Assembly (NCBI GenBank): GCA_002787155.1
Contig: PCVY01000028.1
Location: forward strand, 9,478 to 73,477
Source of the DNA: Candidatus Abzuiibacterium crystallinum
GTDB lineage: Bacteria; Omnitrophota; Omnitrophia; Omnitrophales; Abzuiibacteriaceae
Length of the DNA stretch: 64,000 bases
Direction: 5' to 3'
This document shows positions 8,148 to 33,314 of this stretch, piece by piece. The notes beneath the pieces were generated by a model. That model saw nothing but the letters and a program-made list of their open reading frames with translations. It had not been told where the DNA came from and did no database searches. Position numbers and translations under genes: made by a program. Every line of letters begins with the position of its first letter. Position 1 is the first letter of the stretch.

Positions 8148-8153
8148 TTGTGC

Positions 8154-8849: not shown

Positions 8850-8858
8850 TGTAGCAGC

Positions 8859-10522: not shown

Positions 10523-10609
10523 AAGCCTCCCTCTAAAAGGTGTAAAAATTAATTGACAAACGAAACTCTGTGACGGCCATACTTGATCATGGCTGGTATA
10601 GAGTGAAGG

Positions 10610-11365: not shown

Positions 11366-11369
11366 ATAT

Positions 11370-12356
11370 TTAAGCCTCGCCTGCCGAAATCCGTTCACGC
11401 CAATATTCAAGCAAATGATGCACGCTTTCTTTAAATTCGTACTTAGGTTTCCAGCCGGTCATTTTGGAAAATTTGGTCGTGTCAGGTATTTGAAGCGTCA
11501 CATCCGCCGGTCTTAAAAGCGCGGGGTCTACACGAGAAGGGATTGGTGAGCGACTCTCCTTTTTCAGCAAATCTAAGAATTCGCCCACCGAAATAGAAGT
11601 GGTACCGCCTATATTATACGCTTCGCCCGGTTCACAGTATTGCGTGGCAACCCAATATGCCTCCATTGCATCGCGGACATCGATCATGGTTCTAATCGAA
11701 TCCAAGTTACCGTGTACCAACTCTTTTTGTTTTCCCGTTTCAATCAAAGCCACTTGCCTGGCAAAGGATGTGGCAAAGAGATCGCGGCGTCTTGGATTGA
11801 AATAAGCGAACATGCGTGTGCGAATAATTTTCATCCCATAGCTTCGAAAATAACAAAACCCGAGTAAATCTTGGGCAACTTTGGAAACCGCATAAGGGCT
11901 CGAAGGTTTCATAGGCGCTTCTTCTTTAATCGGCACATCTTTAGGATCTACTTGTCCGTAAACTTCTGAAGTGCTGCATAACTGAATAATGGGGTCTATC
12001 TCGGCAGCGCGAATGGCTTCGAATAAATTAGAGGTGGCTAAAATATTATTACTTAAAACGGCATTGGGATTGTCAAATGAGGCGCGCACATTCGCGTAGG
12101 CAGCCAAATGGAAAATCACATCGGGTTTAACACGACGCATCACATTAAATACAGAGGCAAAATCGTTGAGATCGCATTCATAGGTTTTGATTTGAGAAGC
12201 AATGTTTGCTAGGTTGTTTTGAGCGGTTGTGCTGTGCCATCTTAAAATGCCATGCACTTCGGTGCCCTGGCAGTGTTGAATGATATGCTCGGCTAAATAA
12301 CTGCCGCCCGAACCCGCTATACCTGTAATGAGCGCTCGTTTAAAAGGACGTTTCAT
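11370..12356 (-). CDS. gmd: GDP-mannose 4,6-dehydratase
   Basis: N-terminal ALITGIAGSGGSYLAEHI…GTEVHGILRWHSTT matches the Gmd signature (ALITGITGQDGSYLAE…VHGI.RRSS). The SEVYG…SPYAVSK catalytic region is present. Confidence 0.8.
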   Translation of the reverse strand: MKRPFKRALITGIAGSGGSYLAEHIIQHCQGTEVHGILRWHSTTAQNNLANIASQIKTYECDLNDFASVFNVMRRVKPDVIFHLAAYANVRASFDNPNAVLSNNILATSNLFEAIRAAEIDPIIQLCSTSEVYGQVDPKDVPIKEEAPMKPSSPYAVSKVAQDLLGFCYFRSYGMKIIRTRMFAYFNPRRRDLFATSFARQVALIETGKQKELVHGNLDSIRTMIDVRDAMEAYWVATQYCEPGEAYNIGGTTSISVGEFLDLLKKESRSPIPSRVDPALLRPADVTLQIPDTTKFSKMTGWKPKYEFKESVHHLLEYWRERISAGEA

Positions 12357-13366
12357 TACGAAACCGGCTTTTTATCTAAGAATACATTGTAAGTTTTTAT
12401 GAATTTTCCATTCGTTGCCTTATACCAATCCATTACATCTCGAATCCCCTCCTCAACCGAAATGGAAGGTTTGAAGCCCAATGCTTTTAGTCTTGAAATA
12501 TCCATCACGCGTCTTAGATCGCCTTTCGGTTTTGATGTATCCCATTCTATTTCAAGCGGACGCCCATAACAGCGTTTAATGATCTCTGTTAATTCTTTAA
12601 TTGAAATACCCTGACCGCTCCCTATATTGATTGGTTGGGTTGCTTGCTTTTCAACCACCAGCAGCATAGCTCGCGCAACATCTTTGGCGTGAATAAAATC
12701 TCGCATCGGGGACCCATCCCCCCAGACGCAAAGCGGATTCTCGCCTTCCATCGTTCTTTTAATGAGCGAAGGAATCACCATGGCATTCACCGGATCAAAA
12801 TTATCATGCGGGCCATACACATTGGCTGGACGAACAATTGAACACCGATTCCAACCATATTCAATTTTATACGCTTCAGCCTGCAATTCTCCCATCCGTT
12901 TCGCCCATCCGGCAAATCGGTCGTTTTCTGAAGGAAATGTCTTCCACACATCATCTTCATGGAACACTTCAGCTGGCGCGTAAACACCTATTGTGCTCGT
13001 ATAGAGATACCACTTCACATTGGCCTGCCGCGCCGCTTCCATCATGTTTGTATTAAATAACAAAATCGGGACCAAAAAACTAGCCGGGCGCTTTCCAGTC
13101 ACACCGGGTGAACCTTTAACACCCACTAGATGAAAAACGTAATCCATTCCTTTGCAAACTTCAGCGCATTGATCAAATTTGGTTAAGTTAACACGGCAAA
13201 ATTCAACCTTGGGGTGTGCCAGCGAAGGATCATCCAAAGAAACGACTTTTACCTTTGCGCCGGCATTAACCAAAAGTTCCACCAATTGACGTCCGATCAA
13301 TCCCGTTCCACCCGTCACAAGTACTCTTTGATTCTTAAACATTGATACCATTCTTTCTTGAACCAA
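12356..13366 (-). CDS. fcl: GDP-L-fucose synthase (GDP-4-keto-6-deoxy-D-mannose 3,5-epimerase/4-reductase)
   Basis: The motifs NVYGPHDNFDPVNAMVIPSLIKRT and VWGDGSPMRDFIHAKDVARAM closely match Fcl ([23 protein letters not shown] / VWGSGTPMREFLHVDDMA). The gene is immediately downstream of gmd. Confidence 0.8.
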   Translation of the reverse strand: MVQERMVSMFKNQRVLVTGGTGLIGRQLVELLVNAGAKVKVVSLDDPSLAHPKVEFCRVNLTKFDQCAEVCKGMDYVFHLVGVKGSPGVTGKRPASFLVPILLFNTNMMEAARQANVKWYLYTSTIGVYAPAEVFHEDDVWKTFPSENDRFAGWAKRMGELQAEAYKIEYGWNRCSIVRPANVYGPHDNFDPVNAMVIPSLIKRTMEGENPLCVWGDGSPMRDFIHAKDVARAMLLVVEKQATQPINIGSGQGISIKELTEIIKRCYGRPLEIEWDTSKPKGDLRRVMDISRLKALGFKPSISVEEGIRDVMDWYKATNGKFIKTYNVFLDKKPVS

Positions 13367-14407
13367 CTAAAAAGGTCCTTTAAATTTCTCTTCCCAAGAA
13401 TAAAAAACTTCTTTGGATAAATCGGTTTCTTTTAAGTCTAGCATTTTTTCGGCTAATCGAACAATCTGACGGGCCGAAGGATAAAAAAGATTTTCAAGCG
13501 GCCGGGTCGTCGGACAAGGCGTTTGAGCAAATCCAAGACGCTCGACCGGCTTTTTCAGTTCTTTAAAACAAGCTTTGGAAATTTGTGCGGCGAGCTCGGC
13601 GCCAAAACCGCAAAAAACCCAGTCGTAATCGGCAATCATCGCAAGTCCGGTGCGCTTGACAGATTCGATCATAGGATTAATATCCAGCGGCACCAAAGAG
13701 CGTACATCTATCACTTCCAATGCAACATCCCGCCTTTTTAAAATTTCGGCTGCTTTCAGCGCTTCCACATTCATCCATGAGGTACAGATCACCGTCAGGC
13801 TGTTTCCTTTTAATCTGACTTCTGATTTACCGAGTTGATCCGTTCGATTAAAATCCACGGTATCAACAGCATCGTATAACCACCGATGCTCTAAGAAAAT
13901 AACCGGATTGTCATCTTGGATAGCGGCTCTCAATAAGCCATAAGCATTTTGCGGCGTTGTCGGCATCACAACTTTTAATCCGGGGACGTGGGCAAAAAAA
14001 CTTTGAAGCGATTTGCTGTGTTGAGCCCCTTGCCCCCAACCACGCCCAAGGATACCTCTGATCACAAGCGGCACCTTCACCTTTCCGCCTGTCACATAAC
14101 GCATGTTCGACACCATGTTAACAATTTGATTCATCGCCAACATCATAAAATCAACGCGAATGTGCGTATGAACCGGTCTTAAACCAGACATAGCGGCGCC
14201 CAAAGCAACACCGGTCATCGCATCTTCGGATAACGGTGTGCCAAAACATCTTTTCTTTCCGAACGTTTCAACCAAGCCAACCGTGCTGCCGAATATCCGC
14301 TTATGGTCAGGCACATCGAGCCCGTATACAAAGACTCTGTTATCAGCTTTCATTTCATCACGCAAAGCGCGATTAATCGCATCTCGAAAAGCAATTCGCT
14401 CACTCAC
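13367..14407 (-). CDS. Thiamine-diphosphate-dependent enzyme, E1 beta / transketolase C-terminal-like subunit
   Basis: The 346 aa product has the transketolase-like pyrimidine-binding and C-terminal domain pattern (…VFVYGLDV…, …GFGAELAAQIS…). It pairs with the E1 alpha-like gene at 15611..16579. Confidence 0.65.
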   Translation of the reverse strand: MSERIAFRDAINRALRDEMKADNRVFVYGLDVPDHKRIFGSTVGLVETFGKKRCFGTPLSEDAMTGVALGAAMSGLRPVHTHIRVDFMMLAMNQIVNMVSNMRYVTGGKVKVPLVIRGILGRGWGQGAQHSKSLQSFFAHVPGLKVVMPTTPQNAYGLLRAAIQDDNPVIFLEHRWLYDAVDTVDFNRTDQLGKSEVRLKGNSLTVICTSWMNVEALKAAEILKRRDVALEVIDVRSLVPLDINPMIESVKRTGLAMIADYDWVFCGFGAELAAQISKACFKELKKPVERLGFAQTPCPTTRPLENLFYPSARQIVRLAEKMLDLKETDLSKEVFYSWEEKFKGPF

Positions 14408-14414
14408 GATTCAC

Positions 14415-15614
14415 CTATGAAAGCGGTATTTGGTTGAGTAGTTGACATAGTTTAGAAATTCTTTCCTCACTCAATGAAGGATAATTTCCAATGTAAAACC
14501 CAAAAAAGTGGACATGTTCAACATTCGGGAAATCTTTGTAGTTGATTTTTTTTAGGTACGGCTTCAGATAAGGCTGCCTCAATTGATTACCGCCCCCCGA
14601 AGTTCCGCGTCTAAATTCAACCCCACTATCCTTTAATGTTTCCATGACACGTTCACAGAAAGCATGATTGGGTTCTTTTAAAACCAGTGTAAAAGCATAA
14701 TTACTGCATCCCTCTAATTCAAAATCGACAAAGTACCGCTTTGGATCAAGATTGGCTAAAAAAAATGCTAAATTCCGATTACGCAACTTAATTTCTTCAT
14801 CTAATCGCTTGAGATGCGACAACCCCATCACGGCATTGAGTTCCGTACTTCGAATATTAAAACCGGGGTAAGCAAAAATAAATTCCGGGTTCAGATCGGA
14901 ATATTCTGATTCATATTGACGTTTCAAATCTGAATCGGTTGATTCCCGCACCAGACCATGAGAACGCAACATTCGAACTGTTTCGTAAATCGCTTTATTA
15001 TTTGTTGAAACCATCCCACCTTCAATCGTGGTTAAATGATGTGCATAATAAAATGAAAAATTTGAAACCAAACCAAAAGTGCCTAGTTTTTTGGTGCAAT
15101 GAGTTGCGCCATAAGACTCACAAACATCTTCAACTAAAGGAATGTTTTTTTCGGCCAGGAAAGCAAGCAGCGAATCTGTGAGAGCGTTATAACCCAGGAT
15201 GTGCGTCAAAAAAACTGCTTTTGTTTTCTTGGTCACCTTCTTTTTAATTTGGTTTTCATCCATTCCCAATGTTCGAGGATTAATATCCACAAAAATAGGA
15301 TCAAAACCAAGTCGAATCACTGCTGTAATATCCGAGACCCATGTCAATGTCGGCACCAAAACCTCGCCCGTTCCATGCAAAGCTTGAAAAGCAGCAAGCG
15401 TCACCAGGTTAGCCGAAGAGCCTGAATTAACAAATACGCTGTGCTTGACTCCGAGCCACCGTGACCACGCCTCTTCGAATGCTAATACATTGCGCGATTG
15501 TGTGAGAATGTTGTCTTCTTTTAGGAAATCTATGAGCTCTTGGCGATCGCCGGCGGTAATATTGTTATGCATCAAAGGCCAATGAAGTTTGTTATTCATT
15601 GTTTTTCCGCTCAT
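14415..15614 (-). CDS. DegT/DnrJ/EryC1/StrS-family PLP-dependent aminotransferase or dehydratase
   Basis: The 399 aa product has DegT-family architecture (…AFEEAWSRWLGVKHSVFVNSGSSANLV…). It lies between the split E1 alpha and E1 beta genes. Confidence 0.7.
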   Translation of the reverse strand: MSGKTMNNKLHWPLMHNNITAGDRQELIDFLKEDNILTQSRNVLAFEEAWSRWLGVKHSVFVNSGSSANLVTLAAFQALHGTGEVLVPTLTWVSDITAVIRLGFDPIFVDINPRTLGMDENQIKKKVTKKTKAVFLTHILGYNALTDSLLAFLAEKNIPLVEDVCESYGATHCTKKLGTFGLVSNFSFYYAHHLTTIEGGMVSTNNKAIYETVRMLRSHGLVRESTDSDLKRQYESEYSDLNPEFIFAYPGFNIRSTELNAVMGLSHLKRLDEEIKLRNRNLAFFLANLDPKRYFVDFELEGCSNYAFTLVLKEPNHAFCERVMETLKDSGVEFRRGTSGGGNQLRQPYLKPYLKKINYKDFPNVEHVHFFGFYIGNYPSLSEERISKLCQLLNQIPLS

Positions 15615-16579
15615 ATCGTGCTGAAAATATGGTTGTATAATTCTTGAGATGACGGGAATGGTGCTTGTTTGGCTTTTAAAATACTTTTTTCAATTCTCTC
15701 TTTTAAGCGGGATTGAATCCCTTCGAGTGATTGCTTTTTAATCCCTTTACGAAGACAAATTTTCTCAATTTGATAACAAGGATCATACAACTTCGCTTGC
15801 TGAGAAGTCGGCTTCTTTCGATAACCAAACTTAAAATCCTCGTTAACCCCTACATGTTCCAGAAACCGATAATATTTCAGACAAAGAAAAGCGGGCTGCG
15901 CCTTCTTTTTCATTTGTTGGATTAACTTTGAGGTTTTTTGATATGCGACATCAGCGCGCGACCCATCTCCTTCGTCGTAATAACAACGAAACCCTTTGAC
16001 CGCATCACGGAATGATCGAAACCCCCTTCTGGCTTTGCCTGGCGTGTGAATAGCGAGATCGTTGTCTTCACAAACAAACAAAATACGCAAGCCGCGCAAA
16101 CTGGCAAAATTCAAGCTTTCCCAAAACACACCTTCTTCAATTGCCCCGTCTCCAAAAAAAACAGCAACCATGCCCCCCTTTTTTTCATACTGGTTGGCAA
16201 AAGCAGCGCCCACCGCTACCGGAATGGTCGTCCCAACAACGGCAGAGGTGGCCATCAATTGATGCTCAGGCGAAGTCAAATGCATCGAACCCGCCTTCCC
16301 CATTGCCGGTCCTGTTTGTTTTCCATGCAATTCCGCAAAAAAACCATCCGGCTCTTGAGTGGCCATCAGATAAAGGCCGTGGTTTCGGTAAGTGCCAAAT
16401 ATTTTTGATTGCGGCGGAAGCGCGCTCATGACTCCGGCTGCAATGGCTTCCTGCCCGATACACAGATGGACGGGTGTTTTCATTTCATCTTGAGAATAAT
16501 GTGCCTGAATCGCTTCTTCGCAAAAGCGGATCAAGAAGATTTGTTCGTAACATTGACGAGCTAAGCTAGGCGTGAACAC
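15611..16579 (-). CDS. Thiamine-diphosphate-dependent dehydrogenase E1 alpha-like subunit
   Basis: ThDP-binding region GDGAIEEGVFWESLNFASL. The protein is 322 aa. Confidence 0.65.
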   Translation of the reverse strand: MFTPSLARQCYEQIFLIRFCEEAIQAHYSQDEMKTPVHLCIGQEAIAAGVMSALPPQSKIFGTYRNHGLYLMATQEPDGFFAELHGKQTGPAMGKAGSMHLTSPEHQLMATSAVVGTTIPVAVGAAFANQYEKKGGMVAVFFGDGAIEEGVFWESLNFASLRGLRILFVCEDNDLAIHTPGKARRGFRSFRDAVKGFRCYYDEGDGSRADVAYQKTSKLIQQMKKKAQPAFLCLKYYRFLEHVGVNEDFKFGYRKKPTSQQAKLYDPCYQIEKICLRKGIKKQSLEGIQSRLKERIEKSILKAKQAPFPSSQELYNHIFSTI

Positions 16580-16580
16580 G

Positions 16581-17588
16581 TTAGGTCACATTCTGAAAAT
16601 CATCCGGTTCGTACACCACAATTTTACTTCCGTGCAAATCAAAATTAAAAGAGACATGGACTAATTTCTTTAGTTTTTCTCGGACAGCTTTTTGAAGCTC
16701 CGGCTTGACGAAGAGTAAAATAAACCCACCCCCGCCAGCGCCTAGAATCTTACCTCCCGTAGCGCCAGCAGAAAGCGCTGCTTGATAAATTTCATCAATT
16801 TGCGGTGTGGTAATTTTGTCCGAGAGTTTACGCTTAAATTGCCAAGATTCATGTAATAATTTGCCGAATTGCTCAACAGGCGTTTTTTGATCCTGTAGAA
16901 TATGAATGGCTTCATCCACCATTTCCGACATGTGCTTAAGTTCTGCTTGGCGCTCATTCATATTTTTAATCACTTCAGATGCAATTTTGAAAGCAAAGCG
17001 AGAAAATCCGGTAAAAAAAAGCATGAGATGATCTTTCAAGTCTGACATTCGGTCTTTCGGCAAAATAAGAGGATGCACACCGAATGAATCGTCCCGGTTA
17101 AACTCGATTAAATTAACGCCGCCATAAGATGCCAAAATCTGGTCTTGGGAGCCCACCGCTTCTTTAATGACGTTTTGTTCAACATGAACGGCGCTTCGCG
17201 CCAGCTCCTGTTTATCGATCATGGCGCCCTGAAGAGCTTTAATCGCATGGATAAGACCTACTGTAAAAGCTGAACTGGAACCTAGGCCTGATCTGGCCGG
17301 CAAATCGCCATCGTGATGAATTTCTAGGCCTTTTTGCATATTCATCCATGACAAAACAGCTTTAACTGCGGGATGTTTTATTTCTGAAATTTGATTCACA
17401 TACTCAATTTGCGAATAGACAATTCGGTGTTTATATTCAAAGAAAGGAGGTAAGAAACGACAAGTGATATAACAATATCGATCGATAGCAGTCGCTAACA
17501 CCCTACCGCCATGTTGACGGTACCAGGCAGGATAATCAGTACCACCGCCAAAAAATGAGATCCTAAAAGGCGTTCTGCTAATAATCAT
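16581..17588 (-). CDS. GHMP-family sugar kinase (HddA / fucokinase / galactokinase-like)
   Basis: GHMP ATP-binding motif PARSGLGSSSAFTVGL. The protein is 335 aa. It is in the same operon as nucleotide-sugar genes. Confidence 0.7.
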   Translation of the reverse strand: MIISRTPFRISFFGGGTDYPAWYRQHGGRVLATAIDRYCYITCRFLPPFFEYKHRIVYSQIEYVNQISEIKHPAVKAVLSWMNMQKGLEIHHDGDLPARSGLGSSSAFTVGLIHAIKALQGAMIDKQELARSAVHVEQNVIKEAVGSQDQILASYGGVNLIEFNRDDSFGVHPLILPKDRMSDLKDHLMLFFTGFSRFAFKIASEVIKNMNERQAELKHMSEMVDEAIHILQDQKTPVEQFGKLLHESWQFKRKLSDKITTPQIDEIYQAALSAGATGGKILGAGGGGFILLFVKPELQKAVREKLKKLVHVSFNFDLHGSKIVVYEPDDFQNVT

Positions 17589-17759: not shown

Positions 17760-19340
17760 GTGCTAAGCCAAAATAGAGATAAAACCACATTTGCGCTGCT
17801 TTCGATCATTTTGCTAAGCAACGCCATTTTTCTCTTCCGGCACGCCTCCCATTATTTTGATGTCTACGAGATGGGGGCTTTGATGGACGCCGGATGGCGC
17901 ATCCTCAAAGGGCAGTTGCCTTATCTTGATTTCCAGTGTTCGTCAGGACCTGTTCATCTTTATTTAATCACTCTCTTCTACCGGATATTTGGCATTGGCA
18001 AAAATGCCATGCTTGTCTTTCTAATTGTGTCACATTCTGCCGCTATTTTACTAACTTATGCCATGGCACGTCGATATTGCCCCAAAGCCATTGCCTTTTT
18101 AACTTCTCTCCTGACAACCGTTTGTTTTTATTGGACGATCTCTCATCCTTGGCCAGATCAAACCGCGCACCTATTTGGTTTGGGAGGTGTATGCCTTCTC
18201 ATATATCAAACTCCCTTTTCTTCAAAAAGTTCTGCTTTTAAAAATGGCTTGCTTTGCGGTTTCTTTTTCATTTTATCGATGGCAACCAAAAGCAATGTAG
18301 GCCTTGCTTACGGATTAACATTTGTATTTTTCTTTCTTTCTGTCGAGGGACGCTTGCAGGGACTCCTAGGACTTCTTCTGGGAACTTTGTTGGGCGGCGC
18401 CATCATGTTATTGGTGATTCGAGACCCGGTTGCTTATTACAACCAAGCATTTGCGGCTTTCTACACCGGAGAGCTGGCGAGTCGGCGTTTGATTTCATTT
18501 TTAATCTTGTTTACTTATTTCGTCGAGTGGTATTGGCTGATCGGCATCATCACTTTAGCCGTCATCGAGAAAAATATTAAAACACATCAACCGTGGGTAA
18601 TGCTTTTTATTTGTTTCTACGGCATCATGATTTTTACACGCTTCAGCAGTACTATCAGACCAGAAGCTAATATCCCGCTTTCTGGCGTCTTCTTGGCCAT
18701 GGCTTTTAGCTTGTTATTTAAGGATCGAGAAAATCACACGTCAACACTTGGGAAAATTGTTTTTAAAAGCGCCATCGTCATGATGGTTTTCTTCTCCGGT
18801 TTACTCATTGCGTCATCGGCCAAGAGAGGACTTGCTCTAAACGCCTGGGCTGACGGTGGAATTGATTCTTTTAATCACTACACCATGGCTTCTCGCGGCG
18901 TAGCAGGATGGCAAACGAGTCATCAAACCGGCGAAGCCGTTGACGCCTTGACTCAACTAATCAAAACCTATGTGCCCGCCAATGATTCTTTGCTGGTCTT
19001 AAGCGACCTGCCGATCCTTTATCTTTTAACGAACCATGAAAGCTACGAAGGAATTCCGGTTGCTTTGCGTGTTAATGAAGAACCGCCTCCCGGAGAACCT
19101 TCTCAAAAAATATCGCAGTACGTTCAAACGCACACGCCGGATTGGATTGTGACGCACAAGTCAGAACCAAGCACACCGCGGGTAACTGACATCATCCCTT
19201 ACTTGGGTTTAACCGATATGATTAACGAACATTACATGATTGCGGCACAGCATGAAAATTATGTTTTATTAGTTCACCGGAAGCGGCTAACTGAATTAAC
19301 ACCAACCATTGTTCAGCTACATCAACTAACGGGCGTTTAA
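17760..19340 (+). CDS. Polytopic GT-C-like membrane glycosyltransferase with a C-terminal soluble domain (tandem paralog 1)
   Basis: The 526 aa product has many TM helices. It shares conserved blocks with the next gene (RTGEAVD, DSLLVL.DL.ILYLLT.H.SY.GIP, PDW.VTH). There is an acidic residue in the first loop (MDAGWRI). Confidence 0.5.
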   Translation: MLSQNRDKTTFALLSIILLSNAIFLFRHASHYFDVYEMGALMDAGWRILKGQLPYLDFQCSSGPVHLYLITLFYRIFGIGKNAMLVFLIVSHSAAILLTYAMARRYCPKAIAFLTSLLTTVCFYWTISHPWPDQTAHLFGLGGVCLLIYQTPFSSKSSAFKNGLLCGFFFILSMATKSNVGLAYGLTFVFFFLSVEGRLQGLLGLLLGTLLGGAIMLLVIRDPVAYYNQAFAAFYTGELASRRLISFLILFTYFVEWYWLIGIITLAVIEKNIKTHQPWVMLFICFYGIMIFTRFSSTIRPEANIPLSGVFLAMAFSLLFKDRENHTSTLGKIVFKSAIVMMVFFSGLLIASSAKRGLALNAWADGGIDSFNHYTMASRGVAGWQTSHQTGEAVDALTQLIKTYVPANDSLLVLSDLPILYLLTNHESYEGIPVALRVNEEPPPGEPSQKISQYVQTHTPDWIVTHKSEPSTPRVTDIIPYLGLTDMINEHYMIAAQHENYVLLVHRKRLTELTPTIVQLHQLTGV

Positions 19341-19346
19341 ACAAAG

Positions 19347-20897
19347 ATGCCAAATACATCACCACCCACAGTAAAGAAAGAACTCTATGGCTGGATAGGC
19401 GTTACTGTGTTCTTACTCGTCAACGCTTGGTTTCTTAATTTCAATGCTTTTCGCGGCTTTAACTTCTTTGATTTCGGATGTTTTATGGATGCGACATGGC
19501 GCATCATGCACGGACAAAAACCATACACGGATTTCATTTTCTTCGTTGGCCCTGTTCATCTTTACATGTGCGCTATCTTCTATCTTCTCTTTGGGTTTGG
19601 TAAATGGGCGGTTTTGGTTCACTTGGTGGCAGTTTCTTCTGCGCTTGTTGCACTCACATACCGTGTTGCCAGAAAATATCTTTCAATTCCCCTAGCTGTT
19701 CTAACATCCGTTTTAACCGGTATTGCCTTTTACTGGCCGGTTTCACACCCTTGGTACGATCAATCGGCACACTTCTGGGGATTGCTGGCGTTTTACGCTT
19801 ATCTGTTTTGGTATCCGTTTGAGCGGAACCGCCAAGCATTCTGGGTGGGGGTTTTAAGCGGGAGCGCCGTGATAATTTCTTTGATGACCAAAACCAATGT
19901 CGGCACTACTTATATTCCCCTCATATTCTTCATGTTTTTGATTTCACCCAATTTTCAAAGAACCGTGCCCGGTTTTTTTGTTGGCGCCTTTTCTGCTTTG
20001 ATTGTTCTGCTCGTCTGTCTTGGAAATCCTGCGGCTTTTTACAATCAAACTTTCCAAACCTTCTCGATTCCCAGTCAAACGATTCAGCGTTTTCTCCCTT
20101 TTGTTTACATCCCTACTTACCTTCTCAATGAATATTGGGTTGGACTTTTAGTCATGCTTTACGCCATTCGATCTCATTGGAAAAAAGTATTTCGTTTACT
20201 GATCCTTTCTTTAGGTGTTTATGCCTTGGCTATCTTTACAACAGTAACAGGCTCCATGAAAACAACCGCAAACATTCCATTATGGGGTCCTTTTATGATG
20301 CTGGTTTTTATTGCAGTGGCGCAAGTGCGCCCGCATTTAACAACCACTCGCCGCCAGATTGAAAACTCGATATGCACTGGACTGTTGGTGATTTTGTCTT
20401 TTCTGTTAATTTGTAACGGTGCACTCAGAGGCTTCGCGCTTGAAGCATGGACCTACGGAAACATTGATCCTTTTGGGACTTACCCCATGAAAACAAAACA
20501 ACTAAAGGGATGGCTGGCCAATCAGAGAACCGGTGAGGCGGTTGATCATTTAGTCGCTTATTTAGATGAATATGCATCTAAAGATGACTCTCTTTTGGTT
20601 TTAACCGACCTGCAAATCCTATATTTACTCACCCATCATCAAAGTTATAAGGGTATTCCTTTTAATTTCGCGGATGGCAAGGTGCCAAGCCCAGGACCTC
20701 AGACTGAACAAGTGCGCCGCTACATTCTGAGCCATCCGCCCGATTGGGTTGTGACGCATCGAAATCCCCTCTATCAATCTTTGGTGTCAAAAATTGTGCT
20801 TCATTTGGGCCTACAGGAATTTCTTGAGAAAGACTACGCTAGCATCACCTGGTTGAATGACTATATCTTGTTAAAAAAGATAAAGGATTCGTTTTAG
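19347..20897 (+). CDS. Polytopic GT-C-like membrane glycosyltransferase (tandem paralog 2)
   Basis: The 516 aa product is a paralog of the gene at 17760..19340, with the same motif blocks (FMDATWRI in the first loop). A predicted intrinsic terminator follows it. Confidence 0.5.
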   Translation: MPNTSPPTVKKELYGWIGVTVFLLVNAWFLNFNAFRGFNFFDFGCFMDATWRIMHGQKPYTDFIFFVGPVHLYMCAIFYLLFGFGKWAVLVHLVAVSSALVALTYRVARKYLSIPLAVLTSVLTGIAFYWPVSHPWYDQSAHFWGLLAFYAYLFWYPFERNRQAFWVGVLSGSAVIISLMTKTNVGTTYIPLIFFMFLISPNFQRTVPGFFVGAFSALIVLLVCLGNPAAFYNQTFQTFSIPSQTIQRFLPFVYIPTYLLNEYWVGLLVMLYAIRSHWKKVFRLLILSLGVYALAIFTTVTGSMKTTANIPLWGPFMMLVFIAVAQVRPHLTTTRRQIENSICTGLLVILSFLLICNGALRGFALEAWTYGNIDPFGTYPMKTKQLKGWLANQRTGEAVDHLVAYLDEYASKDDSLLVLTDLQILYLLTHHQSYKGIPFNFADGKVPSPGPQTEQVRRYILSHPPDWVVTHRNPLYQSLVSKIVLHLGLQEFLEKDYASITWLNDYILLKKIKDSF

Positions 20898-20898
20898 G

Positions 20899-20921
20899 TG
20901 GCAGCCTTGGCTGCTTTTTTT
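20899..20921 (+). terminator. Rho-independent terminator (GC stem followed by a T-tract)
   Basis: The sequence GGCAGCCTTGGCTGC followed by TTTTTTT lies immediately after the stop codon of the gene at 19347..20897. Confidence 0.5.
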
Positions 20922-21027
20922 GGAAATGTTATACTTGAAAAAGATGGTCTCACATTATAGGGTCAGTGCCTTGCGACCGATAATAAAAGGACTTAAATTC
21001 AGGTAAATAGAATAAAGGATTAAAGCG

Positions 21028-23034
21028 GTGCTCAACACCAGCAAAACAATTCCAAGCAGCGCTGTTCCTATCAAAATTGGCTTGGTACAGATTAATAATA
21101 GTTTTTCCGGCCAGAATTATTTCCCTTATTCGGTTGGTATCATTCAATCGTTTTTGAAAAAGCACGTCAAAAATATCGAACGTTTCCGGTTTTTGCTGCC
21201 AATCTATTGTCGTATTCCGGTTGCCAACGCAGTCAAGCAATTAGAAGGCGCCCATATCATTTTCTTTAGTGCATACGTTTGGAACATCCGGATTTCTTAT
21301 GAAATTGCTAAACAAATTAAAACATCACACCCAGAAACCATCATCGTCTTTGGAGGACCGCAAGTACCCGACCGCGTTGAATCGTTTGCGCGCGAACATC
21401 CCTGCATTGATGTCTGCTGTCATGGTGAAGGAGAACAGGTAGCCAAAGCTATACTAGAAAAAGGAATCTACGGAAAATGGGAAGAAGTGCCTGCGATCAG
21501 TTTTATAGATCAAAATGATCAATTGGTCCAGACGCCCCGTCCGGAACGGATTCGGGATATGACACTGATTCCCTCACCTTACCTCGATGGCACTTTTGAA
21601 CCCTTGATAAAAGCCTACCCGAAGGAAAATTGGATTGTTATGTGGGAAACAAACCGAGGCTGCCCGTTTTCTTGTACCTTTTGCGACTGGGGATCTGCGA
21701 TTCAAAGCAAAGTCTTTCAATTTGATCTAGACCGGATATGCCGAGAAATTGATTGGTTTGTGAAACATAAAATACAATTCATCTTTTGCGCGGATGCCAA
21801 CTTCGGGATTTTGCCTCGGGATCTGGAAATTACACGCCATTTGGCTGACGCTAAGAAAAAAACAGGGTATCCGCAAGCTATGTCCGTGCAAAACACAAAG
21901 AATGCAACGGAGCGCGCTTATCAGGTCCAAAAAACACTCGCAGAGGCAGGTTTAAATAAAGGCGTAACGGTTTCCCTGCAGTCAGTGGATGATGTTACTT
22001 TAAAAAGCATTAAACGCAGCAACATTTCGACTAACTCATTTCAAGAATTGCAAAGGCGTTTCACCAAGGACAGGATAGAAACATACTCCGACATCATATT
22101 GGGTCTACCGGGTGAGACATACCATTCTTTTGCCGATGGCATTTCTTCGGTCATTGAAAATGGCCAACATAACCGCATCCAATTTAACAATTTGTCTATC
22201 TTGCCGAATGCTGAAATGGGAGATCCGGCTTACCAGAAAAAATACGGCATGGAGACTGTTGAATCAAAAGTGGTTAACATCCATGGGTCACTCGTGGAAT
22301 CAGAGGATAACATTTATGAAACACAAGAACTCGTCATTGCAACCAAATCAATGCCGCGGGAAGACTGGGTTAAGACAAGGGCCTTTTCTTGGATGACATC
22401 GCTCCTTCACTTTGACAAAATTTTTCAGATACCTCTTCTAGTTATTCACAAACTTGGCGCAGTTAAGTTTCGCGATCTAATCGAAATTTTCATAGAAAGT
22501 GACTTAACCCAATATCCTACCTTATCAGAAATCCGTGAATTCTTTTTCGAAAAAGCGCGCGACATTCAAAATGGCGGTGCCGAATTTTGTCGTGCTGAGA
22601 ACTGGCTCAATATCTGGTGGCCGGCTGATGAGTATATTTTTATAAAGTTGTCCGTGGAGCAAAAACTAGATTTGTTTTATCGTGAAGCGCAAAGCATTCT
22701 TGAAAGGTTTTTAAAGCAAAAATCAATCAAACTTCCTGACAATATATTAACGGATGCGGTGCTGCTTAATCAAAGTTTAATCAAACAACCCTTTCAAACC
22801 AAAAACATTAAGATTCAACTTCACTATAATCTTTTTGAATATTATCAGGCAGCTCGCCAAAGCGAAATGGTTAACTTGGAGGATAAACCGGTTACGCACT
22901 TAGTTGACCGAACCACCCAACAATGGCATTCATGGGAAGAATGGTACGAAAAAGTTGTTTGGTTTGGCAATAAAAAAGGCGCTTACTTATATACCAACAC
23001 GCCCACTGATATTGAACTCGCCGGTCACTTTTAA
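21028..23034 (+). CDS. B12-binding-domain radical SAM enzyme, class B (likely a methyltransferase)
   Basis: CxxxCxxC radical SAM motif (GCPFSCTFCDWG). It is preceded by an N-terminal region resembling a B12-binding Rossmann domain (…IIFFSAYVWN…IIVFGGPQV…). The 668 aa product has an extra C-terminal extension of about 200 aa. Confidence 0.7.
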   Translation: MLNTSKTIPSSAVPIKIGLVQINNSFSGQNYFPYSVGIIQSFLKKHVKNIERFRFLLPIYCRIPVANAVKQLEGAHIIFFSAYVWNIRISYEIAKQIKTSHPETIIVFGGPQVPDRVESFAREHPCIDVCCHGEGEQVAKAILEKGIYGKWEEVPAISFIDQNDQLVQTPRPERIRDMTLIPSPYLDGTFEPLIKAYPKENWIVMWETNRGCPFSCTFCDWGSAIQSKVFQFDLDRICREIDWFVKHKIQFIFCADANFGILPRDLEITRHLADAKKKTGYPQAMSVQNTKNATERAYQVQKTLAEAGLNKGVTVSLQSVDDVTLKSIKRSNISTNSFQELQRRFTKDRIETYSDIILGLPGETYHSFADGISSVIENGQHNRIQFNNLSILPNAEMGDPAYQKKYGMETVESKVVNIHGSLVESEDNIYETQELVIATKSMPREDWVKTRAFSWMTSLLHFDKIFQIPLLVIHKLGAVKFRDLIEIFIESDLTQYPTLSEIREFFFEKARDIQNGGAEFCRAENWLNIWWPADEYIFIKLSVEQKLDLFYREAQSILERFLKQKSIKLPDNILTDAVLLNQSLIKQPFQTKNIKIQLHYNLFEYYQAARQSEMVNLEDKPVTHLVDRTTQQWHSWEEWYEKVVWFGNKKGAYLYTNTPTDIELAGHF

Positions 23035-23048
23035 CGCGTGGCCGCCGC

Positions 23049-23384: not shown

Positions 23385-23473
23385 TTAGATTGTTGGTTCA
23401 CTTAGCATTGAAAACACTTAAGCATTTACTAGCAACAAACGATGATATTCTATAGAATAGAGGCGTTTTTTCA

Positions 23474-23941
23474 ATGACTATTTGTGACTATATTAAAGGA
23501 TGCCATATGATCATACGATGGTCTAAACGGCTGCTGACAATTATATTTTTTTTATATATCACCGGCATCGTCTGTTTAAATTTCAAACCGCTCACCCTCA
23601 CAACTCACCCGGTTCTTCTGAAGTCACTTATTTTAGGACAAAACAAAGGTTATATCCTACCCGGATCTGAATTTGAAATCTTTCGTCCTTACTTACCAAG
23701 AAACGGCCGATTTAGCGTTATTTTTGATGAGCCTTTCGCTCAAAACAAATCAATCCAACACCGATTGTGGAATGCACAAAACTACCTTTGTCCGCTCATC
23801 CTTAACCATGACCCTGCTGAGGAATTGGCGCTTGTTCTCTGTTCAGATGAATCAAGCGCCTCCAAACGCTTAAACGCCACTCATTACACCTGGCTTAAAC
23901 AAATCAATCCGGGTGCCGGCATTGCCAGGAAGCAAGTATGA
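23474..23941 (+). CDS. Hypothetical membrane-anchored protein
   Basis: The 155 aa product has an N-terminal TM segment. It is translationally coupled (ATGA) to the next gene. A 12-bp perfect palindrome lies just upstream. Confidence 0.4.
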   Translation: MTICDYIKGCHMIIRWSKRLLTIIFFLYITGIVCLNFKPLTLTTHPVLLKSLILGQNKGYILPGSEFEIFRPYLPRNGRFSVIFDEPFAQNKSIQHRLWNAQNYLCPLILNHDPAEELALVLCSDESSASKRLNATHYTWLKQINPGAGIARKQV

Positions 23942-25398
23942 TGCTCGTTGGCGCTATTTTAATACCCTGGCTAATTGGATTTTTAATTTTAAAACGCCTC
24001 ACAAAACACACCGCCCTATTAAATCCCTTTGGTTTAGCGTTAGCAATCGGCCCTGCTGTTGGATTGGCAATCATCTCCCTAATCCTTTTTGTCTCATTAC
24101 TCCTCACAAATGGTAAAGGCATTATCGTGTCAAACCTTGTCATAGGGCTTTTATTTGCTCTTCTAGTTTGGTTGGAACTTAAAGAGGTGCCCTGGATTGG
24201 AATGCCGTCAAAGTCCGCTAAATATTTTCAGGAAAAAATGCAACAACTCATTAAACCTTTTTCTTCAAAACAACCATCACGTATTGTTTTTTTCCTCTTC
24301 ACGATCGCTGCTTTTGGTTTATTGATTGCAACACTTGTTTATTATCTTCGTTACTATATTTCATACTGTTCATGGAATATATTTGGCGGTTGGGACGCTC
24401 AATATTTATGGAACTACAAGGCGCGCTTTCTAAGCCGTGATCCTCTTTACTGGCGGAACATGTTTTCTCCTGTTATGGCGCAATGGCTTCTACCGGATTA
24501 TCCGCTCCTGCTGCCCGGTTCGGTTGCTTGGGGTTGGAACTTCACGGCCCATGAAATGCTGATATGGCCGGCGGTGATATCGCTTCTTTTCTTCCTCTCG
24601 CTTTGTTTTCTCGTCATTTGGTATCTGTTTGCGTACGTCTCTGCCTTTTCTGCTTTTGTGGCCGGAAGTTTTCTGTTAACAGTCCACGCTTATCAATTTT
24701 GGTCTACAACCCAATATGCCGACATCCCGTTTGCTTTATTTGTTACTGCAGCGACGCTTCTTCTCATATGTGCGCTCCGTCACCGGGAACTTAAACTATT
24801 TTTTTTAACCGGATTTTTAACTGGCTGTGCTATTTGGACAAAAAACGAGGGCATATTCTTTTCCTTGTGGCTTTTTACTTTTTTCATTCTCACTTTTTCT
24901 CGCGCATCACAAATACCCGCATCAAAAAAGAAGAGTGCTTTTCTCCTTTTTCTGTTGGGATATCTGATTCCCTTTTTGTGCTTCTTGATCATTAAGACAA
25001 CATTGGGAGGAGCCGGCATTTATATGGGCTCGGGCCGTAGCGCCGCTGATTATGGGCATTTGATAACCAACCTTAACCGGACTAAATTGATTGTTATTTC
25101 TTTCTTAGTGCTCAAATGGAACTCCGCTCAATGGCTTGGTCTTTGGGCGTGCTTTTATTTGGCATTCTTGGCCGTAGGAAGAAGATTGTTCCAGGCATAC
25201 CGCTGGATCATACCCGGTATGGTTTTTTGTTTAGAAGCAGGGTATTTCCTTGTCTATCAAATTACACCCATCGAATTGCCGTTTCATATCAGTACTTCAT
25301 TACTTCGTCTCTTACTTCATAGCGGCGTTTTAGCGCTTATTTTTATTTTTGAAGTCTTTAATCCCAAAGACTGCTTCGCGATTAAATACACGAAATGA
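23938..25398 (+). CDS. Polytopic integral membrane protein, a possible GT-C-like glycosyltransferase
   Basis: The 486 aa product has at least 10 predicted TM helices. It is coupled by ATGA overlaps to the flanking genes and co-operonic with a SAM-dependent methyltransferase. Confidence 0.35.
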   Translation: MMLVGAILIPWLIGFLILKRLTKHTALLNPFGLALAIGPAVGLAIISLILFVSLLLTNGKGIIVSNLVIGLLFALLVWLELKEVPWIGMPSKSAKYFQEKMQQLIKPFSSKQPSRIVFFLFTIAAFGLLIATLVYYLRYYISYCSWNIFGGWDAQYLWNYKARFLSRDPLYWRNMFSPVMAQWLLPDYPLLLPGSVAWGWNFTAHEMLIWPAVISLLFFLSLCFLVIWYLFAYVSAFSAFVAGSFLLTVHAYQFWSTTQYADIPFALFVTAATLLLICALRHRELKLFFLTGFLTGCAIWTKNEGIFFSLWLFTFFILTFSRASQIPASKKKSAFLLFLLGYLIPFLCFLIIKTTLGGAGIYMGSGRSAADYGHLITNLNRTKLIVISFLVLKWNSAQWLGLWACFYLAFLAVGRRLFQAYRWIIPGMVFCLEAGYFLVYQITPIELPFHISTSLLRLLLHSGVLALIFIFEVFNPKDCFAIKYTK

Positions 25399-26195
25399 CC
25401 GAAGAATTAAAGCAGCAAATCAGATTGTTTTGGGATCGCTATCCATGTGCTGCTGATCGATCTAATCAGGAACGTTATTCAAAAACTTATTTCGAAGAAT
25501 TAGCTCAAAAAAGATACCTCATTGAACCAGAAATTATCTCCTTCGCCCAATTTGATCACTATCGCGGTAGAGACGTCCTGGAGGTTGGTGTTGGTCCTGG
25601 GCACGATTTCAGGCAATGGGTAGCAGCCGGTGCCAATGCCTATGGCATTGACTTCTCATCTGAAGCCATTCATCACACCACCGCTTATCTGCAGCACTTT
25701 GGGTTAAACGCCAAGGAAATAAAAATAGGAGATGCAGAGAATCTCCCCTATCCGGCAGACCGATTCGATTTGGTTTACAGCTGGGGCGTCCTTCATCACA
25801 CGCCTGATACTCAAAAAGCATTGAGTGAAATAGTGCGTGTTTGTCAGCCTGGCGGTATTTGCAAAGTGATGTTTTATCACCGCAACTCTCTTTATGCGTT
25901 TTATCTGTGGCTAAAATACGCTCTATTGAAAGGCCGCCCTTGGCAATCGTTCGGCTGGTGCATCGGTCATTTTCTTGAAAGCCCGGGCACACAAGCTTTT
26001 TCTGTGACCGAAGTGAGAAAAATGCTAAACCGCTTACCTGTCCAAATAATTAAAATATCACCTACACTCACCTATTATGATCTTCTTAAGAATCGCTCCG
26101 CACCCATTCGGGCATTCGCTTGGCTACTCTCGTTTTTGCTGGGCGGGAATCGTGTCGGTTGGTTTATGCTAATCGAGTTTCAAAAGAAAAACTAA
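25395..26195 (+). CDS. Class I SAM-dependent methyltransferase
   Basis: Motif I VLEVGVGPGHD. The protein is 266 aa. Confidence 0.7.
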   Translation: MTEELKQQIRLFWDRYPCAADRSNQERYSKTYFEELAQKRYLIEPEIISFAQFDHYRGRDVLEVGVGPGHDFRQWVAAGANAYGIDFSSEAIHHTTAYLQHFGLNAKEIKIGDAENLPYPADRFDLVYSWGVLHHTPDTQKALSEIVRVCQPGGICKVMFYHRNSLYAFYLWLKYALLKGRPWQSFGWCIGHFLESPGTQAFSVTEVRKMLNRLPVQIIKISPTLTYYDLLKNRSAPIRAFAWLLSFLLGGNRVGWFMLIEFQKKN

Positions 26196-33310: not shown

Positions 33311-33314
33311 GCTT

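Follow-up and report, generated by a model that had tools for sequence, protein, structure and literature searches.

Do two GT-C-type membrane protein genes and a radical SAM gene lying side by side encode enzymes that work on the same, lipid-linked substrate? The question is raised by a stretch of DNA of 64,000 nucleotides (hereafter, the window) from Candidatus Abzuiibacterium crystallinum, an uncultured bacterium of the phylum Omnitrophota. Within a huge surface-glycan gene cluster, three successive ORFs on the + strand code for GT-C paralog 1 (17760..19340, 526 aa), GT-C paralog 2 (19347..20897, 516 aa) and a TokK/CysS-type cobalamin-dependent radical SAM enzyme (21028..23034, 668 aa). All three ORFs of the preliminary description are present with these lengths, and their products are identical in sequence to PIQ86832.1, PIQ86833.1 and PIQ86834.1, respectively.

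The two membrane proteins are indeed paralogous, with 38% identity across 495 residues without a gap (E 2e-116, far beyond chance), and the blocks (R/Q)TGEAVD, DSLLVL.DL.ILYLLT.H.SY.GIP and PDW.VTH are seen in both. According to hydropathy and an AF2 model, residues 1-360 hold about 11 membrane helices, and the C-terminal part, of about 165 aa, is an alpha/beta domain. The soluble domain and the acidic first-loop motif (MDAGWRI and FMDATWRI) that had been described are both there, and acidic residues are conserved in the family; among 54 members, D57, K177, P130, P460, W462 and Y492 are invariant (54/54 for both D57 and K177), while D/E37 is kept in 52/54 and D43 in 48/54. Pfam PMT_2 matches both proteins across TM2-TM7 above its gathering threshold of 26.1 bits (39.1 bits for paralog 1, 30.6 bits for paralog 2). 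The model of paralog 1 (pLDDT 93.9) finds GT-C enzymes in all of its top 33 Foldseek matches in the PDB, the best being ArnT (5f15/5ezm, E 1.5e-8, TM 0.55), and transporters are matched with a probability of 0.2 at most. As judged from profiles and the predicted structure, the paralogs are GT-C enzymes, as had been proposed, and not transporters.

They have the GT-C fold, the acidic first loop and the soluble C-terminal domain in common with ArnT (GT83) and with PMT_2 or “RgtA/B/C/D-like” enzymes, but differ from these in forming a compact family of their own, with a length of about 500 aa, some 178 representatives (E <=1e-30) and the signature motifs PYxDF, HPWxDQ, TKxNxG and PPDW; only 22/54 members reach PMT_2, and the identity of the paralogs with ArnT is 13-14% (profile E-value 0.8). 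Tandem copies are also present in three other loci (L029, L030 and L033); the two paralogs probably use different acceptor sites or linkages.

The third protein is built, in this order, of a Rossmann cobalamin domain, a radical SAM core and a C-terminal substrate domain, the same three-domain architecture that the TokK and CysS papers report together with a lower-axial tryptophan. Pfam B12-binding and Radical_SAM both match above threshold; the cluster motif CX3CX2C is found at residues 212-219 (CPFSCTFCDWG, with cysteines C212, C216 and C219), and W85, in a YVWN motif common to the TokK/CysS group, aligns with the lower-axial tryptophan of TokK (W76) and CysS (W75) and is conserved among orthologs. 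The closest sequences in the PDB are TokK (E 4e-97, residues 30-484) and CysS (E 3e-63); the whole length of the model superposes on TokK (TM 0.82-0.83, about 695 columns), OxsB and TsrM being structurally much more distant (TM 0.46-0.48). Sequence and model together thus identify a genuine class B (cobalamin-dependent) radical SAM enzyme with a bona fide B12-binding domain, which agrees with the first description. The 200-aa C-terminal extension noted there has to be reinterpreted. About 230 residues do follow the radical SAM core, and they form a conserved domain with many invariant residues in 45 aligned orthologs; however, because the superposition on TokK is full-length, this region is the substrate-binding domain that enzymes of the TokK/CysS group normally have, the third domain of TokK (681 aa) as well as of CysS (about 630 aa), and not an addition.

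The window enzyme shares this architecture with the C-methylases TokK/ThnK (carbapenem), CysS (cystobactamid) and KedN5, from which it nonetheless differs in several respects. It scores 268 bits on the NCBIfam KedN5-family model over residues 68-623, against a model cutoff of 700; in the aligned orthologs, the substrate-contacting strand carries an invariant S286-V287-Q288, where S286 takes the place of TokK R280, and S286-Q288 that of CysS W271-S273. TokK, CysS and KedN5 belong to antibiotic gene clusters and act on pantetheine-linked substrates, whereas the present family, tightly conserved even between phyla (about 60% identity), has as its setting, in many phyla, the primary synthesis of sugar nucleotides for the cell surface, with a substrate that is probably nucleotide-linked. 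Other class B enzymes, GenK/GenD1, Fms7, MoeK5 and Fom3, methylate unactivated sp3 carbons of sugars; these are different sequence clusters from antibiotic pathways, and the NCBIfam and PDB searches did not place the window enzyme with them. Fom3 gives a precedent for a nucleotide handle, its substrate being cytidylyl-2-hydroxyethylphosphonate according to a work in the reference list of PMC9204698.

Such a nucleotide-linked substrate could come from the cassette that lies on the − strand at 7197-17588. Divergent from GT-C paralog 1, a GHMP sugar kinase (16581..17588) resembles heptose kinases (NCBIfam HddA 145 bits, below cutoff; PDB matches 3k85 and WcbL 4usk). It is followed by a ThDP-dependent E1 alpha-like subunit (15611..16579; Pfam E1_dh, NCBIfam PDH E1 alpha); a ColD/RfbH-like PMP/PLP enzyme, either sugar 3-dehydratase or aminotransferase (14415..15614; NCBIfam RfbH 202 bits), with the GDP-4-keto-6-deoxymannose 3-dehydratase ColD/WbdK as best PDB match (E 6e-52); an E1 beta-like subunit (13367..14407; Pfam Transket_pyr and Transketolase_C, NCBIfam PDH E1 beta 299 bits); a GDP-fucose-synthase-like SDR (12356..13366; NCBIfam GDPFucSynFcl 167 bits); an SDR resembling GDP-mannose/heptose 4,6-dehydratases and GDP-4-keto-6-deoxy reductase (11370..12356; PDB 2pk3 and 7us5, the latter a GDP-D-glycero-D-manno-heptose 4,6-dehydratase, E about 1e-57); and a PhyH-type Fe/2-oxoglutarate dioxygenase (10610..11410; Pfam PhyH, weak NCBIfam matches). 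Two SDR epimerase/reductase genes (8859-9848 and 7197-8147; NCBIfam and Pfam), homologs of which are found in many loci with the radical SAM gene, enclose an HddC-like sugar-1-phosphate guanylyltransferase gene (8154..8849; NCBIfam HddC 197 bits, E 4e-58). A small GT2 (9845..10522) resembles polyprenyl-phosphate sugar transferases (NCBIfam AglJ 3e-25, Dol-P hexose transferase 4e-18, ArnC 6e-11). One has to keep in mind that, as all NCBIfam matches are below curated cutoffs, the specific activities of the cassette enzymes and of the small GT2 are putative.

The cassette recalls the logic of yersiniose and of avilamycin/paulomycin, in which 4,6-dehydratase, 3-dehydratase, ThDP-dependent C2 branching and ketoreduction are combined; the counterparts here would be the GMD-like dehydratase, the ColD/RfbH-like enzyme, the E1 pair, comparable with the pairs AviB1/AviB2 and Pau11/Pau12 that add C2 branches (PMC4753412), and the reductases. 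It differs from these CDP- or TDP-linked pathways in being probably GDP-linked and in having an entry route by GHMP kinase and guanylyltransferase, as well as a B12 radical methylase. Among the ORFs of the window that were scanned (nearly all of them), none proved homologous to GmhA or GmhB, and a sugar other than a heptose may therefore be the starting point here; the Kovacikia locus has, in addition, a SIS protein resembling GmhA and an HddC-HAD fusion, that is, a GDP-heptose route.

Downstream of the radical SAM gene, the + strand block continues with a single-pass membrane protein of 155 aa (23474..23941), which has no Pfam match; a polytopic membrane protein of 486 aa (23938..25398), whose gene begins just before the 155-aa gene has ended; and, as final gene, a class I SAM methyltransferase (25395..26195; Pfam Methyltransf_11/25, E 1e-19 to 1e-21). 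The 486-aa protein has no similarity to the two paralogs; a marginal PMT_2 match (27.2 bits, just above the threshold of 26.1) makes it a candidate third GT-C-like protein. Homologs of the 155-aa gene follow the GT-C genes, and the 486-aa protein is kept with them, in L024, L029, L030 and L033, whether or not the radical SAM gene is present.

Which genes, then, accompany the radical SAM enzyme elsewhere? In 26 loci carrying an ortholog of at least 45% identity, an SDR like that at 12356..13366 is the commonest shared partner (20/26), followed by the kinase (14/26), E1 alpha and E1 beta (13/26 each), the GMD-like enzyme (12/26), the ColD-like enzyme and the guanylyltransferase (10/26 each) and the small GT2 (7/26); several metagenomic loci are short, and a gene absent there may reflect a contig end, a caveat that does not concern L026, L027, L028, L030, L033, L047 and L048. 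Orthologs of the 12356..13366 SDR (54-63% identity) stand directly downstream of the radical SAM gene in six loci (L004, L019, L026, L028, L047 and L049), and, by Pfam, 19-20 of the 21 loci that do not belong to the Sericytochromatia clade have an aldo-keto reductase or SDR gene within 130 bp downstream; the window is without the directly downstream reductase that nearly all the others have.

As the adjacency was interpreted in the preliminary description, the radical SAM enzyme and the GT-C paralogs would share a lipid-linked substrate, the former C-methylating either a sugar or glycan linked to polyprenyl phosphate or the polyprenyl carrier itself. The radical SAM gene is indeed the next one after the GT-C pair and has the same orientation, the order recurs in the relatives L024 and L029, and lipid-methylating class B enzymes are known (HpnP/HpnR, archaeal lipid methylases). 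The adjacency is, however, confined to this one lineage: the paralog-type GT-C family is near a radical SAM ortholog in only 2/26 loci, the radical SAM gene is near that family in only 2 of the 18 loci that carry it, and in the close relatives L030 and L033 the GT-C pair is followed by the 155-aa and 486-aa genes without any radical SAM gene. Conversely, in Elusimicrobia, Nitrospirota, cyanobacteria, proteobacteria and CPR bacteria, orthologs are found amid soluble sugar-nucleotide enzymes without paralog-type GT-C genes; Nitronereus, L028, L047 and L048 have the same cassette and lack the family, and no member of it is found within 10 kb of the ortholog in Kovacikia, Nitronereus, L047 and L049. 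The enzyme itself has no membrane segment and fits the small-molecule models far better than those of lipid-modifying enzymes (KedN5 268 bits; HpnJ 80, ladderane-lipid radical SAM 54 and HpnR 31 bits). Between the two parts, a weak terminator-like hairpin and T-run (20896..20922, + strand; −9 kcal/mol, z −0.8) directly follows the stop codon of paralog 2, and a promoter-like site (20907-20935) precedes the radical SAM gene; both come from consensus scans and are at most a hint that this gene may be transcribed separately. A role on a lipid-linked substrate is, in our opinion, very improbable. We favor, with a probability of somewhat less than 0.6, a pathway in which the radical SAM enzyme C-methylates a GDP-linked keto-deoxy sugar, polyprenyl phosphate receives the sugar through the small GT2, and the GT-C paralogs pass it on outside the membrane.

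In this proposed pathway, the cassette would make a heavily tailored, GDP-linked deoxy sugar in the cytoplasm, with the E1-like pair being of the kind proposed for two-carbon branching in the AviB1/AviB2 system and the radical SAM enzyme providing an optional tailoring step, whose substrate could, instead of the GDP-sugar, be a free sugar or its phosphate. SAM would methylate cob(I)alamin; a 5'-deoxyadenosyl radical generated at the C212/C216/C219 cluster would take a hydrogen off an unactivated carbon of the sugar, held in a channel formed with the C-terminal domain, and methylcobalamin would then give a methyl radical to the activated carbon. The methylated keto-sugar would be reduced, elsewhere by the aldo-keto reductase or GDP-fucose-synthase-like SDR downstream of the radical SAM gene, and in the window most likely by the SDR at 12356-13366. 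The chemistry on the sugar nucleotide could also be other than a single methylation. TokK and CysS, the closest solved relatives, are both iterative methylases, and two to four tandem radical SAM paralogs in L012, L022 and L023 suggest multiple alkylation steps, by which an ethyl or isopropyl group might be built or the sugar chain extended; no sequence feature, however, separates one methyl transfer from several, and S286-V287-Q288 is unlike the corresponding residues of either enzyme. Class B also includes enzymes other than methylases, and a rearrangement or ring contraction as in OxsB is conceivable, but OxsB and TsrM are the structurally distant members. We hold such departures from a simple mono-methylase to be possible but rather doubtful. 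As for the membrane step, the small GT2, an ArnC/AglJ-like protein, is the likely source of the lipid-linked donor that the GT-C paralogs would use, in the way that ArnC, GtrB or AglD-type polyprenyl-phosphate sugar synthases of GT2 work with ArnT and the PMT_2 enzymes; genes homologous to it lie directly beside the GT-C genes in divergent orientation in L033 and L045, and border the radical SAM gene in L028. After flipping, the paralogs, perhaps jointly with the 155-aa and 486-aa membrane proteins, would pass the sugar to glycan or glycoprotein acceptors beyond the cytoplasmic membrane, a route resembling ArnC/ArnT, GtrB/GtrC and the archaeal AglD/AglS; that no flippase was identified counts against it. 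The paralogs might instead transfer pre-assembled oligosaccharides from polyprenyl diphosphate, like an OST or a ligase, or modify lipid A like ArnT, their best single structural match; STT3, AglB and PglB come near it in structure (TM 0.48-0.54). Yet the window already has two genuine STT3/PglB-type enzymes elsewhere, with STT3 and PglB-core domains, the paralogs match PMT_2 and not STT3, the profile similarity to ArnT is insignificant, and a small GT2 of the polyprenyl-phosphate-sugar-synthase type adjoins the GT-C genes in L031, L033, L034 and L045; we consider both possibilities unlikely.

The radical SAM enzyme is thus most likely part of a widespread and uncharacterised route to sugar precursors, and does not go with the membrane transferases beside which it is found. 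In Candidatus Abzuiibacterium crystallinum and its relatives, precursor synthesis and membrane transfer would form separate functional layers within a single surface-glycan pathway, whose genes are neighbours in this lineage with no mechanistic tie between them.

The three genes at 17760-19340, 19347-20897 and 21028-23034, all on the + strand and coding for 526, 516 and 668 aa, stand as the preliminary description had placed them; their products are identical to PIQ86832.1, PIQ86833.1 and PIQ86834.1, from a groundwater MAG of Candidatus Abzuiibacterium crystallinum (Omnitrophota). The third product, a cobalamin-dependent radical SAM protein (hereafter rSAM), matches the Pfam models Radical_SAM (50.7 bits, threshold 29.5) and B12-binding (39.1 bits, threshold 32.1). 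Its CX3CX2C motif lies at residues 212-219, with C212, C216 and C219 invariant in 45 orthologs. Among solved structures, TokK (E = 4e-97) and CysS (E = 3e-63) match it, two enzymes described as made of a cobalamin-binding domain, a radical SAM domain and a large C-terminal domain forming the substrate channel, with a Trp beneath the cobalt (W76 in TokK, W75 in CysS). In the AlphaFold2 model of rSAM (pLDDT 84.8), the beta-alpha repeats of residues 15-170 superpose on TokK, and W85, in a YVWN motif, aligns with this lower-axial Trp and is invariant in the 45 orthologs; the B12-binding domain is, thus, genuine, as had been proposed. The "200-aa C-terminal extension" also attributed to this protein is, on the other hand, the usual third domain of the family, since the superposition on TokK is full-length and takes in the C-terminal third (TM 0.82-0.83 normalised on either protein, about 695 columns); OxsB and TsrM reach a TM of 0.46-0.48 only. 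By its architecture, rSAM is an ordinary member of the TokK/CysS type.

The best NCBIfam model for rSAM is that of the KedN5 family of methylcobalamin-dependent C-methyltransferases, which aligns with residues 68-623 at 268 bits, well under its curated cut-off of 700 bits; models of lipid-modifying enzymes score far lower. The orthologs form a group related to, yet separate from, the KedN5 family. rSAM has the three domains and the lower-axial Trp in common with TokK and CysS, whereas its substrate-contacting strand differs from both: the positions of TokK R280 and of CysS W271, L272 and S273 align with S286-V287-Q288, which are invariant in the rSAM orthologs. As these residues are invariant yet unlike those of TokK and CysS, the alignment implies a substrate that differs from theirs but is well defined.

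The claim that the first two genes are paralogs is borne out (38% identity, gapless across 495 residues, E = 2e-116), and the conserved blocks quoted for them are found in the sequences. Their assignment to GT-C glycosyltransferases, rather than to transporters, also holds. Both proteins pass the Pfam model PMT_2 (PF13231; 39.1 and 30.6 bits for a gathering threshold of 26.1), which is reached at E ≤ 1e-3 by 22 of the 54 family members gathered. Hydropathy gives 8-9 strong segments; an AlphaFold2 model built with the 54 family relatives as input (pLDDT 93.9, pTM 0.93) places about 11 long helices in residues 8-359 and an alpha/beta domain in the remainder (360-526). When this model was compared with solved structures using Foldseek, the best 33 matches were all GT-C glycosyltransferases (E = 1.5e-8 to 4e-2, probability 0.99-1.0), with ArnT first (E = 1.5e-8, TM 0.55), then STT3/AglB/PglB, ALG3/9/12, AftA/AftB, Pmt, and Emb; the first non-GT-C match had a probability of 0.15, and transporters stayed at or below 0.2. 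The acidic residues in the loop after TM1 are conserved (D57 in 54/54 members, D43 in 48/54, D/E37 in 52/54), and K177, P130, P460, W462 and Y492 are invariant in the 54 members.

The fold is shared with ArnT and CAZy family GT83, but significant sequence similarity is absent: the family profile compared with PDB sequences gave E = 0.8 (11.7 bits) for ArnT, and identity in the structural alignment is 13-14%. Because of this lack of similarity to ArnT, and because PMT_2 is reached by a part of the members only, the paralogs constitute a small family of their own, on the side of the GT-C fold where ArnT and PMT_2 stand. Word-indexed searches, whether with a single sequence or with the 54-sequence profile, returned only the same three proteins each time; the single-sequence search gave no more than two relatives. 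An exhaustive HMM profile search of 1.84 billion representatives was needed to uncover the family: at E ≤ 1e-30, it gave 178 relatives, all full-length and close to 500 aa. Tandem copies also occur in L029, L030 and L033, three comparison loci from close relatives of the window; the copies of L029, like those of L030, cluster within the locus and not between loci, which suggests repeated duplication of the gene. With these compact proteins of about 500 aa, the ArnT/PMT_2 branch gains a family that had not been described before.

The preliminary description had also read the adjacency of rSAM and the GT-C genes as a functional link. Homologs of rSAM number in the thousands, with about 60% full-length identity in Elusimicrobia, cyanobacteria, Nitrospirota, Betaproteobacteria, Chloroflexota and others. 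We searched 26 loci carrying an ortholog at ≥45% identity, with up to 10 kb on each side (many metagenomic loci being short), with every protein of the window. What recurs around rSAM is the sugar-nucleotide cassette that, in the window, lies divergently upstream of the GT-C genes (7197-17588, − strand): a short-chain dehydrogenase/reductase (SDR) like 12356-13366 in 20/26 loci, a GHMP kinase like 16581-17588 in 14, E1 alpha and E1 beta in 13 each, a GMD-like SDR in 12, a ColD-like enzyme and an HddC-like guanylyltransferase in 10 each, and a small GT2 in 7. The GT-C family is found in two, L024 and L029, both close relatives of the window (66% rSAM identity); conversely, rSAM is present in only 2 of the 18 loci with a GT-C family member. 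In L030, the order is GT-C, GT-C, then relatives of the 155-aa (23474-23941, +) and 486-aa (23938-25398, +) genes, with no room for rSAM. In L033, GT2, SDR, E1 alpha/beta, ColD-like, kinase and guanylyltransferase genes diverge from the same GT-C, GT-C, 155-aa, 486-aa series, and no rSAM lies within 10 kb. Since the two genes rarely co-occur and these two loci do without rSAM, we conclude that rSAM belongs to the sugar cassette as an optional gene for tailoring, and that in one lineage it was inserted right after the GT-C pair, ahead of the genes that otherwise follow; an adjacency confined to one lineage is no ground for annotating a functional coupling. A putative terminator after the second GT-C paralog was given little weight, as a consensus scan was positive but its stability was no better than that of shuffled sequence.

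If a divergent Sericytochromatia clade is set aside, 21 loci remain, and 19-20 of these encode an NAD(P)H-dependent reductase ≤130 bp downstream of rSAM. In 12 loci it is of the aldo-keto reductase type; in 6-7 it is orthologous to the 12356-13366 SDR (54-63% identity). The aldo-keto reductase gene, directly after rSAM in L024 (13651-14601), L029 (12118-13077) and 10 other loci, is absent from the window (23035-23473), and tblastn found no remnant of it in this 440-bp gap. The gap holds, instead, an ORF of about 105 aa in convergent orientation (23049-23384, −), whose N-terminus is hydrophobic; it is an orphan, none of the loci collected having a homolog. The divergent clade (Sericytochromatia, Blackallbacteria; L014-L018, about 10001-13780) has a shorter rSAM of 627 aa at 48-49% identity, directly followed by a 610-640-aa protein of about 13 TM with a Rce1-like CAAX protease domain; no sugar-nucleotide genes surround rSAM there, and the context is wholly different.

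Closest solved homologs give an idea of the cassette enzymes, one having to keep in mind that all function-specific HMM scores of the cassette are under curated cut-offs. The kinase (16581-17588) comes closest to heptose kinases, WcbL among them; 11370-12356, to GDP-D-glycero-D-manno-heptose 4,6-dehydratase and GDP-4-keto-6-deoxy reductase; and 14415-15614, to ColD, the GDP-4-keto-6-deoxymannose 3-dehydratase. In NCBIfam, 8154-8849 matches HddC and two SDRs match GDP-fucose-synthase-like models, all below cut-off. In a Kovacikia locus, a SIS protein like GmhA and a fusion of HddC with HAD complete the GDP-heptose route; neither was found among the window ORFs scanned. E1 alpha/beta pairs of the same type, AviB1/AviB2 and Pau11/Pau12, have been proposed to attach a C-4 acetyl branch from pyruvate (PMC4753412), and yersiniose synthesis follows a parallel logic of dehydratase, 3-dehydratase, ThDP-dependent branching and reduction (PMC9306805). 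We also considered erwiniose or caryophyllose as the product, C7 methylation turning the cassette's sugar into a 3,6,8-trideoxy-4-C-branched octose; this idea was dropped, as the published erwiniose route uses a YerE-like ThDP enzyme, a longer keto-acid donor and an aldolase, and requires no radical SAM enzyme (PMC9306805).

In the pathway that we propose, the cassette would yield a GDP-linked keto-deoxy sugar, probably branched; by analogy with TokK, rSAM would C-methylate an unactivated carbon of this sugar, and the reductase would then remove the keto group. That the substrate of such a methylase may bear a nucleotide handle has a precedent in Fom3, whose own substrate is cytidylylated. From here on, we infer the steps: the small GT2 (9845-10522) would load the sugar on polyprenyl phosphate, and, after flipping, the GT-C paralogs would move it to an acceptor outside the membrane. 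This GT2 resembles AglJ, Dol-P-hexose transferase and ArnC (matches below cut-off), and AglJ/ArnC-like small GT2 genes adjoin GT-C family genes in four comparison loci (L033, L045, L031 and L034; in L033 and L045, it is this GT2 that lies directly beside them), a context in which the GT-C paralogs may use a polyprenyl-phosphate-linked donor. Compared with the three-component systems GtrA/B/C, ArnC/E/F/T and AglD/R/S, in which a GT2 polyprenyl-phosphate sugar synthase, a flippase and a GT-C transferase go together, the window holds a candidate GT2 (below cut-off) and the GT-C genes; no flippase was identified in it, the sole small multi-TM ORF (61496-61846, +) being far from the GT-C and rSAM genes. 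That ORF (116 aa, 3 TM) starts 10 bp after another small GT2 (60782-61486) and is a candidate small flippase-like partner.

The window is a glycan super-locus: it encodes two oligosaccharyltransferases of STT3/PglB type, an ABC exporter of Wzt type, sulfotransferases and methyltransferases, and has genes for nonulosonic acid. The acceptor may, therefore, be a surface glycan, N-linked or of another kind, in the manner of archaeal AglD/AglS. The two oligosaccharyltransferases (50689-53226 and 57644-60421, both −; 845 and 925 aa) are 29% identical paralogs with Pfam STT3 and STT3-PglB_core, with a homolog at the same relative position in L033; the presence of this pair suggests N-linked protein glycosylation in this bacterium. 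The genes at 35540-36607, 37544-38491, 38512-39807 and 31146-34355 code for two sulfotransferases, a Wzt ABC-exporter ATPase whose C-terminal domain binds glycan, and, for the synthesis of nonulosonic acid, NeuB with a UDP-GlcNAc 2-epimerase; they point to a sulfated, methylated, ABC-exported glycan.

Other polytopic proteins are encoded nearby. Two 9-TM proteins of 574 and 520 aa (3026-4750, − and 5638-7200, +) have no Pfam or NCBIfam match, and hhalign gave a probability of at most 3% for the kinship of either, or of the 486-aa protein, to the GT-C paralogs. Small GT2 genes (1263-1997 and 4747-5454, −) lie near them, one adjoining 3026-4750; these may be further pairs of lipid-linked-sugar transferases. 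In rSAM loci of other phyla, large polytopic proteins of other kinds are found (L008 3037-6276; L011 2847-5879; L020 4777-7875 and 13652-15916; L004 3029-4636), four with YfhO-like C-termini (750-1080 aa) and one of PMT_2/DUF6056 type. As rSAM loci hold such different polytopic proteins, with the same small GT2 in L004, L011 and L020, the tailored sugar may often be delivered by a lipid-linked route, via unrelated transferase families.

Additional radical SAM genes occur in some loci. TokK-like B12 radical SAM tandems lie beside a GHMP kinase of the same type in L022 (5418-13842), L012 (9980-14094) and L023 (8810-12923): four paralogs, about 30% identical to the window rSAM, in a MAG of Acutalibacteraceae (gut Clostridia), two in a CPR Brennerbacteria MAG, and two in another Acutalibacteraceae MAG. 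Such arrays would fit a multi-step alkylation of the sugar. L004 (13006-16303, 18666-20003) and L028 (1099-3018), of Elusimicrobia type, carry further radical SAM genes inside the cassette itself (HemN-like, a second B12-binding one, and one more distant), so several radical steps per sugar seem possible. As for the cofactor, an Rfam scan of the window gave no cobalamin riboswitch or other RNA match, and no B12 synthesis or uptake gene was found among the window ORFs scanned. In L049 (6917-9596), the rSAM-SDR pair stands alone, directly after an operon for a cobalt transporter of CbiMNQO type, which may connect it with the supply of cobalamin.

Both rSAM and the GT-C proteins are of known kinds, and neither family has a characterised member. 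To our knowledge, the cobalamin-dependent radical SAM methylases characterised so far nearly all serve pathways to antibiotics, cofactors or lipids. None with a nucleotide sugar or a surface polysaccharide as substrate is listed in a 2026 review of the class, and our literature searches gave no B12 radical SAM enzyme characterised on GDP-sugars or polysaccharides. The main interest lies in the widespread rSAM-reductase pair of the sugar-nucleotide cassettes and not in the adjacency to GT-C genes. The boldest reading, tentative at a probability of roughly 0.3, is that the rSAM orthologs and the downstream reductase make up a widespread uncharacterised B12-dependent route to C-alkylated surface sugars, through TokK-like methylation, possibly repeated, of a GDP-linked keto-deoxy sugar; it would span Omnitrophota, Elusimicrobia, Nitrospirota, cyanobacteria, proteobacteria, CPR bacteria and, more distantly, gut Clostridia. 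The ortholog group is large, tightly conserved and embedded in sugar-nucleotide cassettes, and rSAM is a practical target for enzymology, since the structures of TokK and CysS, to which it is close, are solved and its candidate substrates are clear. Should the predicted activity be confirmed, this group of enzymes would gain a new class of substrates, and unusual C-methylated branched sugars would be expected in the envelopes of many uncultured bacteria. If the route as a whole is true, it would bring to bacterial glycans alkyl branches or extended chains that are new to them, and the structure of cell-envelope glycans would depend on the supply of cobalamin.
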